Assembly: GCA_021414165.1 (NCBI GenBank)
Contig: JAIOPA010000175.1
Coordinates: 1-24,710, forward strand
Length of the DNA: 24,710 bases
From: Candidatus Eiseniibacteriota bacterium
GTDB lineage: Bacteria; Eisenbacteria; RBG-16-71-46
Direction of reading: 5' to 3'
Below the pieces are notes generated by a model. The model was not told the origin of the DNA and made no database searches. It was given only the letters and a program-made list of their open reading frames with translations. The position numbers and the translations under genes were made by a program. Below are positions 1 through 23,713 of this stretch, one piece after another. The stretch's first letter is position 1; every line of letters starts with the position of its first letter.

Positions 1-1028
1 TCCTCGGCGTTGATGCGGCATTCGATCGCGTGGCCACGGATCGTGACGTCGTCCTGCGTGAACGACATAGGTTCACCGGCCGCCACGAGGATCTGCTCCT
101 TCACGAGGTCGATGCCCGTGACCTCCTCGGTGACCGGGTGCTCGACCTGGATGCGCGTGTTCATCTCCATGAAGTAGAACGAGCCGTCCTCGTCGTACAG
201 GAACTCCATGGTGCCGGCATTCAGGTAGTTGATCGAGGCGGCGCCGCGTGCGGCCAACTCGCCCATGGTCTTGCGCTGCTCGGGCGTGAGCACCGAGCTG
301 GGGGCTTCCTCGATGAGCTTCTGGTGGTTGCGCTGCACGCTGCACTCGCGCTCGCCCAGATGCACCACGTTGCCCTTGCCATCACCGAACAGCTGGATCT
401 CGATGTGGCTCGGCTTGGTGATGTACTTCTCGAGGTACACCGCGTTGTTGTTGAACGCCGCGCCGGCCTCGGCCTGCGCGATACCGAAGCCCATGCGCAG
501 CTGCTTCTCGTCCCACGCGATGCGCATGCCGCGGCCACCGCCGCCGGCCGACGCCTTCACGATGACCGGGAACCCGATCTCGCGCGCGATCGACACGGCT
601 TCCTCGATGTCCGTGATGATGCCGTCGCTGCCCGGCACCATGGGCAGGCCCGCGGCCTTCATGGTGCGCTTGGCCTCGGCCTTGTCGCCCATGCGACGGA
701 TCATCTCGGGCGTGGGGCCGATGAACGTGAACCCGCACGATCCGCAGACTTCGACGAAGTGCGCGTTCTCGGACAGGAAGCCATAGCCCGGATGGATCGC
801 GTCGGCGCCCGTGACCTCGGCGGCCGCGATCAGGCGGGCGATGTGGTTGTACGACTGCGCCGGGGCCGGCGGTCCGATGCACACCGATTCGTCGGCCAGA
901 CGCACGTGCAGGCTGTCACGGTCGGCTTCGCTGAACACGGCCACGGTGGCGATATCGAGTTCGCGGCAGGCGCGGATGACGCGCAGCGCGATCTCACCGC
1001 GATTGGCGATGAGTACCTTCTTGAACAT
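1..1028 (-). CDS. accC: Acetyl-CoA carboxylase biotin carboxylase subunit (partial; runs off the left edge)
   Basis: Hand translation from ATG 1028: [21 protein letters not shown]...[11 protein letters not shown]...[12 protein letters not shown]...[18 protein letters not shown]...[16 protein letters not shown]. Absent from the ORF track because it is truncated. Confidence 0.97.
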
Positions 1029-1037
1029 GCTTGGCCT

Positions 1038-2243
1038 TTACTCCCGCGACATCCAGTCGGGACGAGAGGAACCGGGGGCACCGCCACCCGGCGAGGGGTT
1101 CGAGCCTGCCGCGGGCGCGCCGGTTTCCGGCTCGCTCTCCGCGGCTTCGATGGGCTGCCACGTGCGATCCGACGTGCCCGCGATGCCCTTCAACTTGAGG
1201 CTCAGTTCGTTCGGGTTGTTGCAGTTCTTGAGCGCGTCCTCTTCGGTGATCAGGCCCTCGCGCAGCAACGCGAGCACGCTCTGATCGAACGTCTGCATGC
1301 CGTACTGCGTCACGCCTTCACTGATGAGCGTGTGCAGGAACGGGATGCGCTCGGGGTCCAGGATGTACTCACGCACGGTGGGCGTGGACACCATGACCTC
1401 GACGGCCGGGATACGGCCGGCGCCGTCCTTGCGTGGGATGAGGCGCTGCGAGATGACGGCGCGCAGGTTGGCGGCGAGCGCCATGCGCACTTCATCGTGC
1501 TGGTGCGGCGGATAGAACGAGATGATGCGCTGGATGCTCTGCACGACGTCGGTGGTGTGCAGCGTGCTCATGACCACGTGACCGGTGTCGGCCGCCATGA
1601 GTGCGGTGGACATGGTCTCGTAGTTGCGGATCTCACCGACCAGGATGATGTCGGGATCCTGGCGCAGCACGTAGCGCAGTCCATCCTGGAACGAGGCGGT
1701 GTCGAGACCGACCTCGCGCTGATGGATGAACGACAGGCGGTCGCGGTGCAGGAACTCGATCGGGTCCTCGACCGTGATCACGTTGCGCGTGGTCGTACGG
1801 TTGATGGTGTCGATCATGGCCGCGAGCGTGGTGGACTTGCCCGAGCCGGTACGCCCGGTGACCAGGATGAGTCCGCGCGGCGAGAACGCCAGGTCGCGGA
1901 TCGTGGGCGGCAGCCCCAGGTCATCGAGCGTGGGCACCTCGACCGGCACGTGGCGCAAGGCCACGGCGGGCGTGCCGCGCTGCATGAAGATGTTGGCGCG
2001 GAAGCGGGCCAGACCGGCCACACCGAACGCGAAGTCGATCTCGTGGTGCGTCGCGAAGTGTGCGCGCTGCTCCTCGTTGAGCATCTGCTGGCACACGTCG
2101 CGCAGTTCCTGCGACGTCGGGGCCGGCTCATCGAGCGTGTACAGCACGCCATCGACACGCACCACCGGCGGGGTACCCGCCTTGAGGTGCAGATCACTGG
2201 CGCGCGCCGCGATCATCTTCTCGAGCACGCTACGGATGTTCAT
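1038..2243 (-). CDS. pilT: PilT/PilU-family type IV pilus retraction-type ATPase
   Basis: ASDLHL N-terminus, Walker A GRTGSGKSTT, Asp box EDPIE, Walker B DIILVGEIR, His box TLHT. The AIRNLIRE motif position reads TVREYILD, so PilT versus PilU is uncertain. SD-like GAGGG upstream. Confidence 0.9.
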   Translation of the reverse strand: MNIRSVLEKMIAARASDLHLKAGTPPVVRVDGVLYTLDEPAPTSQELRDVCQQMLNEEQRAHFATHHEIDFAFGVAGLARFRANIFMQRGTPAVALRHVPVEVPTLDDLGLPPTIRDLAFSPRGLILVTGRTGSGKSTTLAAMIDTINRTTTRNVITVEDPIEFLHRDRLSFIHQREVGLDTASFQDGLRYVLRQDPDIILVGEIRNYETMSTALMAADTGHVVMSTLHTTDVVQSIQRIISFYPPHQHDEVRMALAANLRAVISQRLIPRKDGAGRIPAVEVMVSTPTVREYILDPERIPFLHTLISEGVTQYGMQTFDQSVLALLREGLITEEDALKNCNNPNELSLKLKGIAGTSDRTWQPIEAAESEPETGAPAAGSNPSPGGGAPGSSRPDWMSRE

Positions 2244-2313
2244 GGGTCCCTCGTCCGCCGTCCGCTCGGGCCGGGTGGAGCCCCGGGGGCCGGTGGGACG
2301 TACGACGTCCGTG

Positions 2314-2931
2314 TCAGATCGGCTCGATCAGGAACAGCTTCTGCCCGAACTCCACGGGCTGGGCATTGTCGATCAGCATCTTCACGACACGGCCCTTCAC
2401 CTCGGCCTCGATCTCATTCATGAGCTTCATGGCCTCGATGATGCAGACGGTCTGTCCCACCTCGACGATGTCCCCGACCTCGACGAACGGATCGGCATCG
2501 GGCGCGGGCGAGCGGTAGAACGTGCCCACCATGGGCGACGTGACCGCCTTGAGGTTGCTGTCGGGGTCGGCCGCCGGCGCGGGTGCAGCCGCCGCTGCGG
2601 CAGCCGCCGGAGCCGCGCCACGCGCGGCCGGTGCGGCCGCCGATGCGGGAGCTGCCGCGACCCACGTGCCACCCGAGCCCGCGTTGGCCGAGATACGCAC
2701 CGAGCGTCCGCCCGATTCGATCTCCAACTCACCGATGCCCGTGCGCTGCACGAGCTTGATGAGCTGACGCAGTTCCGCGAGTTCGAAGCCCGCGACGGCC
2801 GAGACCGCCGCGACGTTGTTCGCGGGCTTGGCCGCAGGCTTGGAGGGAGCGGACTTCGACGAAGCGGCTTTCGCCGCAGGGGACTTCGACGACTTGGCGG
2901 CAGTCTTGCCGCGCTTCGGAGCGCTAGCCAC
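2314..2931 (-). CDS. accB: Biotin carboxyl carrier protein of acetyl-CoA carboxylase, with N-terminal Lys/Ala/Ser extension
   Basis: SPMVGTFY and biotinylation motif EAMKLMNEI; Ala/Pro linker. Start is GTG 2931 (AGGTGG 6 nt upstream) or ATG 2937; overlaps the aroQ stop. Confidence 0.95.
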
Positions 2932-3367
2932 GAGCATCCACCTTCTGAAGGAGTCCGCGCAGAGCGAGCGCGTAGCTCTCGACGCCGAAGCCCGCGACCA
3001 GACCGAGCGAGACGCCGGCGGTCAGCGAGACATGGCGAAACGATTCACGTGCGTGCGGATTCGACACATGCACCTCGACCGTCGGGAGACCGGCGCCCGC
3101 GATCGCATCGCGCAACGCGACACTCGTGTGCGTCAGGCCGCCCGGGTTGAAGATCACACCGTGACAGCGGCCGCGGGCCTGGTACAACGCGTCGATGAGA
3201 ACCCCTTCGTGCGCACTCTGGAGGGTCTCGACCTCACAGCCGAGTTCCTGCCCGAGCGTGCTCAACCGGGTGTTCACCTCGTCCAGCGTCACGCGACCGT
3301 AGATCTCTGGCTCGCGTGTGCCGAGCGCCTGGAGGTTGGGGCCGTGCAGGATCAGGATTCGTCGCAT
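2924..3367 (-). CDS. aroQ: Type II 3-dehydroquinate dehydratase
   Basis: [54 protein letters not shown]. Start reassigned from the ORF track (3460) to ATG 3367. Confidence 0.96.
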
Positions 3368-17930: not shown

Positions 17931-18161
17931 CTACTTCTTGTTGCGGGCCGCTGCCTTGGCCGGCTGCTTGGAAGCCTTCTTGGCGACCTTCTTGGCCGGC
18001 TTGGGGGCGGGCTTGGACTTCTTGGCCGGCTTGGCCGCCGCCTTCTTGGCGGGGGCAGCCTTCTTGGCCGGCGCGGCCTTCTTCGGAGCCGCCTTCTTGG
18101 CAGGCGCCGCCTTCTTGGCCGGAGCCGCCTTGGCCGGGGCCTTCTTCGCAGCTCCCTTGGC
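17931..18161 (-). repeat. Imperfect (A)KKAAP peptide repeats (~18-nt unit) forming the SucD tail
   Basis: Repeated gccttcttggc on the plus strand with variable third codon positions. Confidence 0.9.
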
Positions 18162-19067
18162 CCTCGCGCGGCGCCGCTGCAGCAGCTCGGCGACCAGGCC
18201 CGGGATCTCGGACGGGATGCGCGCCACCGGCACGCCTGCCGCCTCGAACGCCGCCATCTTCTCGGCCGCCGTACCCGTGCCGCCCGAGATGATCGCACCG
18301 GCGTGGCCCATGCGCTTGCCCGGAGGCGCGGTCTGGCCGGCCACGAACGCGACCACGGGCTTGGAGACGTGGCGCTTGATGAACTGCGCCGCCTGCTCCT
18401 CGGCGTTGCCGCCGATCTCGCCCATGAGCACGATCGCCTCGGTCTTGGGATCGGCCTCGAACAGCGTGAGCGCATCGATGAAGTCGGTGCCGATCACGGG
18501 GTCACCGCCGATGCCGAGACACGTGGTCTGGCCCAGGCCGGCGTCGGTGAGCTGCTTCACGACCTCGTAGGTGAGCGTGCCGCTCTTGCTCACCACGCCG
18601 ATCGGGCCCGGCGTGCAGATGTGACCGGGCAGGATGCCGACCTTGGACTGGCCCGGCGTGATGAGACCGGGGCAGTTGGGGCCGATCAAGCGAGGACGGC
18701 CGAGCGTGTTGTTCGGGCCACGCAGGTTGTTGACCTTGTGCCACGCGGCGAGCGTGTCGCGCACCGGCACGCCCTCGGTGATGCACACGATGAGCGCGAT
18801 GCCGGCATCGGCGGCCTCGTGGATGGCGTCGGCGGCGAAGGGCGCCGGCACGTAGATCACCGAGGCGTTCGCCTTGGTGGCTTCCACAGCCTCGGCGACC
18901 GAGTCGAACACCGGCACGCCGTGGATCTCGGTGCCGCCCTTACCGGGCGTGACACCGCCCACGACCTTGGTGCCGTACGCGATCATCTGCTGCGTGTGGA
19001 ACGCGCCATCGCGGCCGGTGATGCCCTGCACGATCAGACGGGTGTTGCGGTCGATCAGGATGCTCAC
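17931..19067 (-). CDS. sucD: Succinyl-CoA synthetase alpha subunit with histone H1-like C-terminal tail
   Basis: MSILID...[38 protein letters not shown] (phospho-His); GTGA overlap with sucC. Confidence 0.97.
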
Positions 19068-20518: not shown

Positions 20519-21289
20519 ATGCTCAAGGCCGTCCGCTCCACCCTGCTCGCGCTGGGACTGGTGTGCGTTGCCGTCCCCTCGCTCGCCGGCACGATCGTGC
20601 TTGAACCTTGGACGACGCCGTTCCCTCCCAACCTGTGCCTCGAGGACACGCACGCTGCGGTGATCTTCGCGGGGCCGTATTGCGACGGATTCAGTTGCCC
20701 TCCGGGGACCATTCGATTCGGCCCCTGCAACGGCAGCAACAGCACCGAGTTCAGCGTGCTTTCCTCAGAGTCGTTCGGGACGTTCACTCGTTACGTCGAT
20801 CTTCAGGGAGAGACGGTCTCGAGCGGCATCCTGCCATCGGCCCAGCGGATCGACTTCCGACATGGCGACATTCCGGTCTGGCTCTCGGTGCTGGACTATC
20901 AGTGGTCCATCCCGGGTGGCTTCAATCTGCCCGCCCACGGGGTGGATGAACTCCAGTTCGAGGTCCTCGGCACCCCGGGGATCGACCCTCCGATCTCGGT
21001 GACCGTGATCCTCTGGGGGCTGACCGGCCAGCTGACGCTCACTCGGTCCATCACCCAGCCGGGCCTGGTCTCGCTACCACTCGCCGACTTCGAATCGGTG
21101 ACCGGCTACACGGGCACGGATGTGAATGAGGTCTCGGTCGAGTTCAGCAACTGTCCGAATGCCGATTGCACCGGCCTGCCTCCCGCGACCGCAGGCGGCT
21201 TCTCGCTCGGCCCGATCTCGTTCCACAGCACGCTTCCGACGCCGACGAAGCAGCGCTCGTGGTCACAGGTGAAGTCGATCTACCGGTAA
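20519..21289 (+). CDS. Secreted hypothetical protein (beta-rich, 6 Cys in the mature part) with C-terminal SWSQVKSIYR motif
   Basis: SD GGAG; Sec signal MLKAVRSTLLALGLVCVAVPSLA; protein-like composition; no family recognised. Confidence 0.85.
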   Translation: MLKAVRSTLLALGLVCVAVPSLAGTIVLEPWTTPFPPNLCLEDTHAAVIFAGPYCDGFSCPPGTIRFGPCNGSNSTEFSVLSSESFGTFTRYVDLQGETVSSGILPSAQRIDFRHGDIPVWLSVLDYQWSIPGGFNLPAHGVDELQFEVLGTPGIDPPISVTVILWGLTGQLTLTRSITQPGLVSLPLADFESVTGYTGTDVNEVSVEFSNCPNADCTGLPPATAGGFSLGPISFHSTLPTPTKQRSWSQVKSIYR

Positions 21290-23131: not shown

Positions 23132-23713
23132 ATGTACCACGACGTGACGCAGTTGGAGGTGCTGGAGCCCTATCGGCTCCGCATCACATTCGAGGATGGC
23201 ACCTGCGGTGAGGTCGACGTCCGCGACCGCGTGCCATTCGTGGGCGTGTTCGCGCCGCTCGAGGACCCGCGTGTCTTTGCCCAGGCACGCATCGATCCCG
23301 AACTACGAACCGTGGTCTGGCCGACCGGCGCCGACCTCGCGCCCGATGCGATGTACGAACGGATCAAGGCTGTGCAGACTGGAGATGTCGTCGCGCTCCC
23401 TTCCACTTCCACTTCGCCCCCGACTCGACCCGCCCCCGCGGAGTCCTCGGGGAGGCCGGAGCTCAGTCGCTTCCTGGGCCTCGTGATCTCGATGTACTAC
23501 GACGATCACGAACCACCGCACTTCCACGTTCGCTACGGTGAACACATCGCAGCGATACGGCTGTCACCACTTGGCGCATTGCGTGGCTCCTTGCCGAGGA
23601 GAGCGCTCGCGATCGCACTCGAGTGGGCTGCGCTGCATGAGCGCGAGCTAAAGGACGACTGGGAACGCGCCCGGCGTGGGGAACCACTCGTGGCGATCGC
23701 GCCGCTGGAGTGA
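23132..23713 (+). CDS. DUF2442-like + DUF4160-like fusion protein (193 aa; putative fused toxin-antitoxin)
   Basis: SD GAGGAG, ATG 23132. N-half YRLRITFEDG...GVFAPLED...TVVWPTGADLAPDAMY; P/S/T linker; C-half PELSRFLGLVISMYYDDHEPPHFHVRYG...EWAALHERELKDDWE...IAPLE. Hidden at the end of ORF-track entry 21344..23713. Confidence 0.85.
   Translation: MYHDVTQLEVLEPYRLRITFEDGTCGEVDVRDRVPFVGVFAPLEDPRVFAQARIDPELRTVVWPTGADLAPDAMYERIKAVQTGDVVALPSTSTSPPTRPAPAESSGRPELSRFLGLVISMYYDDHEPPHFHVRYGEHIAAIRLSPLGALRGSLPRRALAIALEWAALHERELKDDWERARRGEPLVAIAPLE

Follow-up and report, generated by a model that had tools for sequence, protein, structure and literature searches.

A short C-terminal tail on unrelated secreted proteins of Candidatus Eisenbacteria and other phyla, interchangeable with type IX secretion domains and a candidate sorting signal

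The tagged protein of the window

The window analyzed here is the whole 24,710-nucleotide stretch of contig JAIOPA010000175.1 (assembly GCA_021414165.1) from a Candidatus Eiseniibacteriota bacterium, and the subject of this report is a short peptide, hereafter the tag, at the C-terminus of a secreted protein encoded in it. The gene, taken from the list of open reading frames (ORFs), occupies positions 20519 to 21289 of the forward strand, stop codon included, and specifies 256 amino acids (aa). It is a lone gene flanked by sucC/sucD on one side and an aldehyde dehydrogenase gene on the other, in a window that is otherwise housekeeping, and the G+C content of its third codon positions (0.83) is that usual for coding sequence of the source genome. 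The first 24 codons (20519 to 20590, forward strand) encode a Sec signal peptide of the signal peptidase I type, MLKAVRSTLLALGLVCVAVPSLAG, with a basic n-region, a hydrophobic core and an A-x-G cleavage-like site; cleavage is predicted at MLKAVRSTLLALGLVCVAVPSLAG/T, and the equivalent signal peptides of homologues align with it. The body that follows (20591 to 21235, forward strand) consists of an N-terminal CDGxxCPP(G) motif and a beta-sandwich (jelly-roll, CBM11/CBM30-like) domain, as judged from AlphaFold2, Foldseek and the family alignment.

The protein terminates in ...HSTLPTPTKQRSWSQVKSIYR, its last 17 codons encoding PTPTKQRSWSQVKSIYR-stop (21236 to 21289 including TAA). These codons (21236 to 21286: CCG ACG CCG ACG AAG CAG CGC TCG TGG TCA CAG GTG AAG TCG ATC TAC CGG) comprise a linker half on the forward strand, P-T-P-T-K-Q-R-S (21236 to 21259; consensus P-[VT]-P-[VT]-[ER]-x-x-[ST]), and a core on the same strand, W-S-Q-V-K-S-I-Y-R (21260 to 21286; consensus W-[GS]-x-[IVL]-K-[SA]-L-[YF]-R-COOH), predicted to form a short amphipathic helix; the stop codon TAA (21287 to 21289, forward strand) lies immediately 3' of it. 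Uncharged hydrophobic runs within the last 31 residues reach 6 residues at most, which leaves no room for a transmembrane (TM) helix. The original prediction, made from this DNA alone, of a signal peptide, a Pro/Thr spacer and an amphipathic non-TM end is thus borne out by MLKAVRSTLLALGLVCVAVPSLAG, the P-T-P-T linker and the shortness of these runs.

Compared with Pfam and NCBIfam at E<=10, the window protein matches no model. A quick homologue search returned only the protein itself, and its relatives were recovered by an exhaustive HMMER search of 1.84 billion proteins, which yielded a family of 167 representatives, the best-scoring full-length ones being about 240-280 aa. The family is patchy, with a homologue in 6 of the 41 near relatives of the source genome; a paralogue on contig C95, 26% identical, is tagged as well. 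Residues C55, D56, G57, C60, P61 and P62 are invariant in the family alignment, from which AlphaFold2 predicted strands between residues 79 and 240 (predicted local distance difference test, pLDDT, 84-93 at 141-210). Foldseek matched the body to CBM11, CBM30 and CBM29 jelly rolls (E 1e-5 to 1e-3) with low template-modelling scores (0.33/0.46), and its matches in the AlphaFold database include small jelly-roll proteins annotated with PEP-CTERM anchors or with the C-terminal domain (CTD) anchors of the type IX secretion system (T9SS).

The tail is the best-conserved part of this family. In an alignment of six homologues at 23-33% identity, the only invariant residues beyond position 191 are the W, K, Y and R of the tail. 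The strict tail ends 67 of 149 family representatives in the HMMER set, or 90 of 149 when variants such as ...YRR, ...YRN and ...LYH are counted, and the rest are mostly fragments.

Occurrence of the tag in the source genome

The source assembly is a metagenome-assembled genome (MAG) of 2.10 Mb in 513 contigs, 80% complete, with 68.7% G+C, and the C-termini of all its 17,826 six-frame ORFs of at least 60 aa were examined. The pattern W-x-x-[VILM]-K-x-x-[YF]-R ends 14 of them, where 0.0016 would be expected from C-terminal residue composition; one further ORF has the tag with F for W. The reversed control pattern gave 0 matches, and no strict motif occurs at an internal position in any of these six-frame ORFs. 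A hidden Markov model (HMM) of the tail recovered the same set and two probable variants, ending ...SWKQLKDLYRSK and ...TWWRLKSLTR. The 14 tags differ in synonymous codons and are directly followed by a stop, which may be TAA, TAG or TGA, indicating selection at the peptide level rather than a DNA repeat.

All 15 tagged proteins have a signal peptide by eye. In the scan for signal-peptide enrichment that had been proposed, all 13 called tagged genes were positive, as were 35% of other genes (Fisher p=1e-6); genes and signal peptides were both called by simple heuristics of our own, loose in the case of the signal peptide. Judged by eye from their N-terminal sequences, without pairwise comparison, the 15 proteins form at least seven groups, among them an NLRW..C..GD family of six members (three in tandem on contig C31), the pair formed by the window protein and its C95 paralogue, two QN..NP.FE proteins, an apparent lamin-tail-like protein in C280 (recognized by eye, without a family scan) and several singletons. 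The claim that many unrelated exported proteins end in this motif therefore holds for the source genome, with its 14 + 1 ORFs in at least seven groups, all with signal peptides. The tail is a tag on unrelated secreted proteins, and more than chance or the quirk of one family.

Consensus, carriers and predicted structure

A consensus was drawn from 109 tails gathered around tags in seven other genomes: Cys at -19/-20, P at -17, [VT] at -16, P at -15, [VT] at -14, [ER] at -13, two variable residues, [TS] at -10, and then W, G, x, [IVL], K, [SA], L, [YF] and R-COOH. P stands at -15 in 83 of the 109 and T or S at -10 in 106, and W is followed by G in 87 and by S in 11. Since the W, K and R columns of these tails are fixed by the search pattern, unbiased conservation was taken from the window protein's own family, as given above. 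The TPT-type linker of tags in the source genome resembles linkers in records named Eisenbacteria.

Tagged proteins are short, with a median of 286 aa against 687 aa for CTD proteins, and rich in Cys (4.5% versus 1.2%). The distance from the last Cys to the end is 18-21 residues in 69 of 109, suggesting that the tag starts at the end of a disulfide-stabilised body. Other carriers include beta-helix proteins, Cys-module proteins and many without a Pfam match. In many lineages, for instance families f13 and f15, the tag is immediately preceded by a module with six Cys in about 40 residues, GACC-x(4-9)-C-x(7)-C-x(2-4)-GG-x(7-9)-C-x-PNPC, which in many cases itself follows another PNPC; alignment places examples at L022:7587-7778, L033:10181-10372, L080:5636-5827 and in 15 more cases, and the module is absent from the source genome. 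It has no Pfam match, and AlphaFold2 predicts a small knot of three strands and a helix (pLDDT 79-85).

Structural statements on the tail are likewise predictions, one of them of low confidence. In the AlphaFold2 model of the window protein, residues 242-256 have a pLDDT of 29-37, the linker being without secondary structure and residues 248-254 helical; in the Cys-module context the small knot is followed by linker and by a helix on W-G-x-I-K-x-x-Y at a pLDDT of about 70. In both of these unrelated contexts linker and helix stand off the body. On a helical wheel W, I/V, L and Y fall on one face with K and R flanking, and the helical hydrophobic moment of the tag is 0.48-0.55 (0.55 for the window core).

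Distribution of the tag among genomes

The DNA pattern W..hK..[YF]R-stop gave 5-47 matches per genome in all 41 nearest relatives (reversed control 0-1), and across the phylum it matched in 145 of 151 genomes, mostly with 10-65 matches each (reversed control 0-3); the sampled genomes are related, and their counts are not independent. Matches are scarce in family f10 (32 genomes of 1.4-3.5 Mb), at 0-5 per genome. The DNA pattern overlooks variant tails, such as those ending in YQ or YH, and 800 kb of a closed f10 genome contained one canonical tag along with two variants, ending ...KLYQ and ...TLYH, carried by small proteins with signal peptides. Use of f10 as a tag-free, T9SS-positive contrast was accordingly rejected, as tags are present there and merely depleted.

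A stricter pattern, applied to 185,579 species genomes, identified at least 120 loci, and of about 127 pattern matches among the loci listed all but two are real tags. Taking the depositors' own labels for MAGs, the matches listed include Ca. Eisenbacteria, Krumholzibacteriota/Krumholzibacteriia, Latescibacterota/Latescibacteria, uncultured Fibrobacteraceae and a GC-rich MAG labelled Fibrobacter sp., as well as uncultured Gemmatimonadota, Cloacimonadota, Zixiibacteriota, UBP1 and one Verrucomicrobiia contig. The motif had been attributed to Eisenbacteria, Krumholzibacteriota and Latescibacterota, among others, and it was found in MAGs bearing these three names. Counted over whole genomes, the tag occurs 55 times in the MAG labelled Gemmatimonadota, 40 times in the one labelled Fibrobacter and 25 times in a closed Latescibacteria chromosome (G169), in whose phylum tags are patchy (0-60 per genome).

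One tag each was found in a Cloacimonadota MAG and a Zixiibacteriota MAG, and the Cloacimonadota tagged protein was found again, with its tail, in a second MAG. This sole tagged protein of the Cloacimonadota MAGs (L152, 2181-2885, forward strand, and L137) is a conserved 234-aa signal-peptide protein ending ...MVPVFNQNRSWGRIKSIYR. Upstream of its gene lies one for a protein of more than 660 aa without family, and downstream one for a 121-aa TM protein with an acidic tail; the downstream neighbour (120-121 aa) is common to both MAGs. Nothing recognisable as a reader of the tag was found among the neighbours of the single tagged gene in these MAGs.

Relationship to type IX secretion

In the vicinity of tags, ten proteins are encoded whose bodies are homologous to those of tagged proteins but whose C-terminus is a T9SS type-A CTD. 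For example, the tagged protein of L072 is 59% identical over 209 aa to the CTD protein L055_8045, and that of L061 is 42% identical over 393 aa to the CTD protein L074_574. The tag is found on unrelated secreted proteins in several candidate phyla of the FCB group, selection acts on its peptide sequence, and homologous bodies can bear a T9SS CTD in its place. This exchange suggests that the tag acts as an alternative sorting or anchoring signal; the choice of anchor on homologous bodies is the strongest argument for such a role.

The type-A CTD (TIGR04183/PF18962 Por_Secre_tail, with a FlgD_ig-like form in candidate phyla of the FCB group) resembles the tag in its position at the extreme C-terminus of Sec-exported proteins, in lacking a TM helix, and in occurring in the same genomes on interchangeable bodies. 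However, the CTD is a folded beta-sandwich of 70-100 aa, whereas the tag is a 17-residue linker and helix that matches no model: the Por_Secre_tail match of about 70 residues is lacking both in the window protein (E<=10) and in ten further tagged proteins, whose tails match no Pfam or NCBIfam model at E<=0.1. Tag cargo is also much smaller and far richer in Cys than CTD cargo, and the T9SS is a constant feature of genomes whose tag numbers range from 0-5 to 65. SprA occurs in 5 of 5 genomes of the lineage, whose T9SS is complete, with 43-119 CTD matches per genome in tag-rich relatives, in 5 of 5 other tag-bearing genomes, in 5 of 5 genomes of f10 and in 61 of 61 of the Latescibacteria phylum whatever their tag number. 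In total 76 of 76 genomes tested have SprA, and every tag-bearing genome tested has the T9SS translocon.

The CTDs of the phylum have a lineage-specific C-terminal signature of their own: the 74 CTD proteins of loci L001-L100 end in [RK][RK]-(V/L/I)x4-R, with terminal R in 66% against 20% of other proteins. This ending resembles the K-x-L-Y-R of the tag, but its register is off by one residue.

The best PorV-like (FadL-type) outer-membrane protein of the source genome is encoded on L270 (G000:C15) at 877-1827, forward strand, and ends ...LTLGYHF. Directly after it, at 1628-3100 of the forward strand, lies a gene whose product contains an M6 (immune inhibitor A-like) metallopeptidase domain, HENGHNFFGFGDVYD; this product may be a protease associated with the T9SS that replaces or accompanies a PorU of the C25 type.

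Comparison with other C-terminal signals

The tag shares several traits with LPXTG/sortase, PEP-CTERM/exosortase, GlyGly-CTERM/rhombosortase and MYXO-CTERM signals, which are likewise short, portable and lineage-restricted and occur on many unrelated secreted proteins per genome. Both these tripartite signals and the tag have a small Pro-containing signature at the start (P-[VT]-P-[VT]-E in the tag) and a basic residue at the end; yet the former have a TM helix of 15-20 residues between signature and basic cluster, and the tag has none and no NCBIfam match. The C-terminal anchors of Escherichia coli PBP5/PBP6 and of MinD are, like the tag, short amphipathic helices after a flexible linker with aromatic and basic interface residues, but they conserve physical character within single families, whereas the tag conserves its sequence across unrelated families and several phyla. 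The BamA beta-signal is also a C-terminal recognition motif with an aromatic residue near the end; its final residue is F/Y/W, located in the last strand of a barrel (as in the ...LTLGYHF of the PorV-like protein), whereas the tag ends in Y-R, is predicted to be helical and sits on soluble beta-sandwich or beta-helix proteins.

As had been claimed, the tail does not correspond to LPXTG, PEP-CTERM, GlyGly-CTERM or T9SS CTD signals, the window protein matching no NCBIfam or Pfam model at E<=10; these libraries presumably include models for all four. The tag matches no signal catalogued in NCBIfam or Pfam, and a full-text literature search returned no paper on the tail, or on sorting or type IX secretion in Eisenbacteria.

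Interpretation of the tag

The reading that we favor, with a probability of roughly 0.6, is that the tail serves as a docking peptide for a conserved component of the envelope, which sorts its cargo to, or retains it at, the outer membrane or cell surface. The carriers are small and rich in Cys, and their export proceeds by way of Sec and signal peptidase I. On them the tag spans about 17-20 residues: in most it opens with the last disulfide Cys, after which come a linker rich in proline and an amphipathic helix of 9 residues at the free C-terminus. Exposed after export, this helix would most likely be bound by the envelope component, which would bring the protein to the outer membrane or cell surface or keep it there, the role that the T9SS CTD has on paralogous proteins. 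Both the reading by a protein receptor and the destination of the cargo are inferred. The original prediction of a recognition tag for an uncharacterised envelope pathway is consistent with the swapping of tag and CTD.

As to the nature of the reader, the tag may be coupled to the T9SS, directly or via an adaptor, or its reader may be a separate one, apart from the T9SS; we consider the two about equally probable. We would hesitate to go further and regard the tag as the signal of an undescribed sorting or surface-anchoring route, independent of the T9SS and served by a dedicated envelope receptor or enzyme. Such a route, were it to exist, which we consider possible rather than probable, would span Eisenbacteria, Krumholzibacteriota, Latescibacterota and further phyla of the FCB group, and would handle dozens of small disulfide-rich exoproteins per cell.

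Several results weigh against a docking peptide with an envelope reader. A search of 100 loci of up to 20 kb around tags, from 7 genomes of 6 families and with 1,449 genes in all, found no specific recurrent neighbour of tagged genes; the one family that recurs in as many as 36 loci arose by single linkage and lumps together Ser/Thr kinases, sigma-54 activators and histidine kinases. No sortase-like enzyme recurs among these 1,449 neighbouring genes, a statement that holds for the neighbourhoods, no genome-wide exosortase or sortase search having been made. As SprA is universal in these phyla, its co-occurrence with the tag is non-discriminating. Between tag-rich and tag-poor genomes the number of PorV-like paralogues stays at 7-8 and does not track tag counts, and counts of S41 peptidases track the tag loosely at most, with counter-examples; no reader emerged from these profiles. 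Among the first 120 loci listed, none is named Bacteroidota, which argues against the conserved T9SS core alone as reader, and known T9SS signals are folded domains of 70-100 aa rather than short peptides. In addition, 1-3 residues follow YR in a few family members, suggesting that an exact free carboxylate is not strictly needed. A complex prediction of the PorV-like protein (G000:C15) with window residues 215-256 scored 0.00, which weighs neither way on binding.

Other explanations of the tail have to be considered. It could be an anchor in its own right, the amphipathic helix inserting by itself into the interface of the membrane or lipopolysaccharide, with no dedicated reader, in the manner of the C-terminal helices of PBP5/6 or the cytoplasmic membrane-targeting sequence of MinD. 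The AlphaFold2 helix in two contexts, its hydrophobic moment of 0.48-0.55, the lack of a reader gene in neighbourhoods and profiles, and the single copies in Cloacimonadota and Zixiibacteriota MAGs, which need no dedicated machinery, all fit this view. However, the helix is only about 9 residues long, and membrane-targeting helices conserve amphipathicity rather than sequence, whereas in the tag the same residues (W, G, K, Y, R and the linker P at -15) recur from phylum to phylum and on unrelated bodies. Such conservation at the level of sequence points to a specific binding partner, and a direct anchor appears unlikely. A similar verdict, expressed more firmly, applies to the proposal that the tail is no tag at all, being the conserved end of one large family or domain, a product of chance or a DNA-level repeat. 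Nearly all members of the window-protein family have the tail, and an upstream Cys-rich module is common to many carriers; but the carriers differ widely (jelly-roll, beta-helix, apparently lamin-tail-like, Cys-module and many Pfam-less proteins), that module is absent from the source genome, the chance expectation is 0.0016 with synonymous codons varying, and the tail is not packed on the body in the AlphaFold2 models, all of which makes this proposal very improbable.

Two further possibilities treat the tail as a substrate for an enzyme. It might be a C-terminal pro-peptide or quality-control signal, bound and removed by the PDZ domain of an S41/Ctp (tricorn-like) or HtrA-type protease, like the C-terminal extension of pre-D1 or FtsI. 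At least one S41 peptidase is encoded in each of the 151 genomes of the phylum sample (mostly 1 in f10 and 2-12 elsewhere, including tag-rich genomes), the tag length of 9-17 residues is akin to that of extensions removed by Ctp enzymes such as CtpA/Prc, and in the Latescibacteria chromosome G169 an S41 match at 908707 lies just downstream of tandem tags at 906023 and 907101. Yet S41 counts diverge from the tag, with 10 tags and 1 S41 in G043 and no pattern match but 4 S41 in G056; the adjacency, seen in 1 of about 12 genomes compared by coordinates, could be due to chance; Prc/Ctp enzymes favour apolar C-termini and not Y-R; and processing alone leaves the swap with T9SS CTDs unexplained. We regard a pro-peptide as quite improbable. 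The tail might also be attached covalently to peptidoglycan through the Lys at -5, in the style of Braun's lipoprotein, given that this Lys is invariant in the family alignment and that K-x-x-Y-R-COOH is superficially like the K-Y-R-K-COOH of E. coli Lpp. The YkuD domain (PF03734), however, was not found in two tag-rich closed or near-closed genomes, G071 (34 tags, 97% complete, main contig of 6.45 Mb) and the G169 chromosome (25 tags), yet it is present in the tag-poor family f10, and an Lpp-like link is therefore rejected.

The study of LPXTG, PEP-CTERM, the T9SS CTD and similar C-terminal signals has in each case brought a secretion or anchoring machine to light, and surface proteomes are routinely predicted from them. 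The tail described here marks about 1% of genes in many genomes of several almost uncultured phyla, and most of its cargo is dark protein without family assignment in which no annotation pipeline recognises the tag; a model of it would allow thousands of proteins to be annotated as belonging to the envelope or surface. The uneven numbers of the tag (0-60 within one phylum; about 1-5 versus 20-65 in Eisenbacteria families) put its reader within reach of phylogenetic profiling. Were the tag a minimal T9SS signal, the view that T9SS recognition needs a folded domain would change; were the T9SS-independent route true, Sec substrates would have in the tag their first short C-terminal sorting signal without a TM helix.

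Genes around tags and other features of the window

A conserved locus for tagged genes, without obvious reader, was observed in four families, in which a block of lspA, an anti-sigma-kinase-like HATPase gene, ruvX, mltG/YceG, a gene for a small TM protein and one for a Big_1-like protein lies directly upstream of tagged genes (L047 3-5706; L099 2653-8702; L033 11247-17929; L083 2-2688). In L047 five tandem tagged genes follow the block. This block, common to 4 genomes, was considered as a reader candidate and set aside as housekeeping synteny (lspA, ruvX, mltG).

Three features of the window lie outside the tagged gene. The alpha subunit of succinyl-CoA ligase (17931-19067, reverse strand; CoA_binding and Ligase_CoA) continues at its C-terminus for about 90 extra residues with abundant Ala, Lys and Pro, an extension that resembles a histone H1 tail and is unusual for SucD. 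At 23144-23710 of the forward strand, DUF2442 (residues 82-156 of the translated stretch) and DUF4160 (193-255) share one frame with no stop between them; these domains are usually encoded by separate adjacent genes, and the frame may represent a fusion. It continues upstream as the antisense of the aldehyde dehydrogenase gene, and its start position is ambiguous. Finally, a PilT/T2SSE-type secretion ATPase (PF00437) is encoded at 1038-2243 of the reverse strand between the genes for biotin carboxylase and for a biotin carboxyl carrier protein recognized by eye, an unexpected position in a fatty-acid synthesis neighbourhood.

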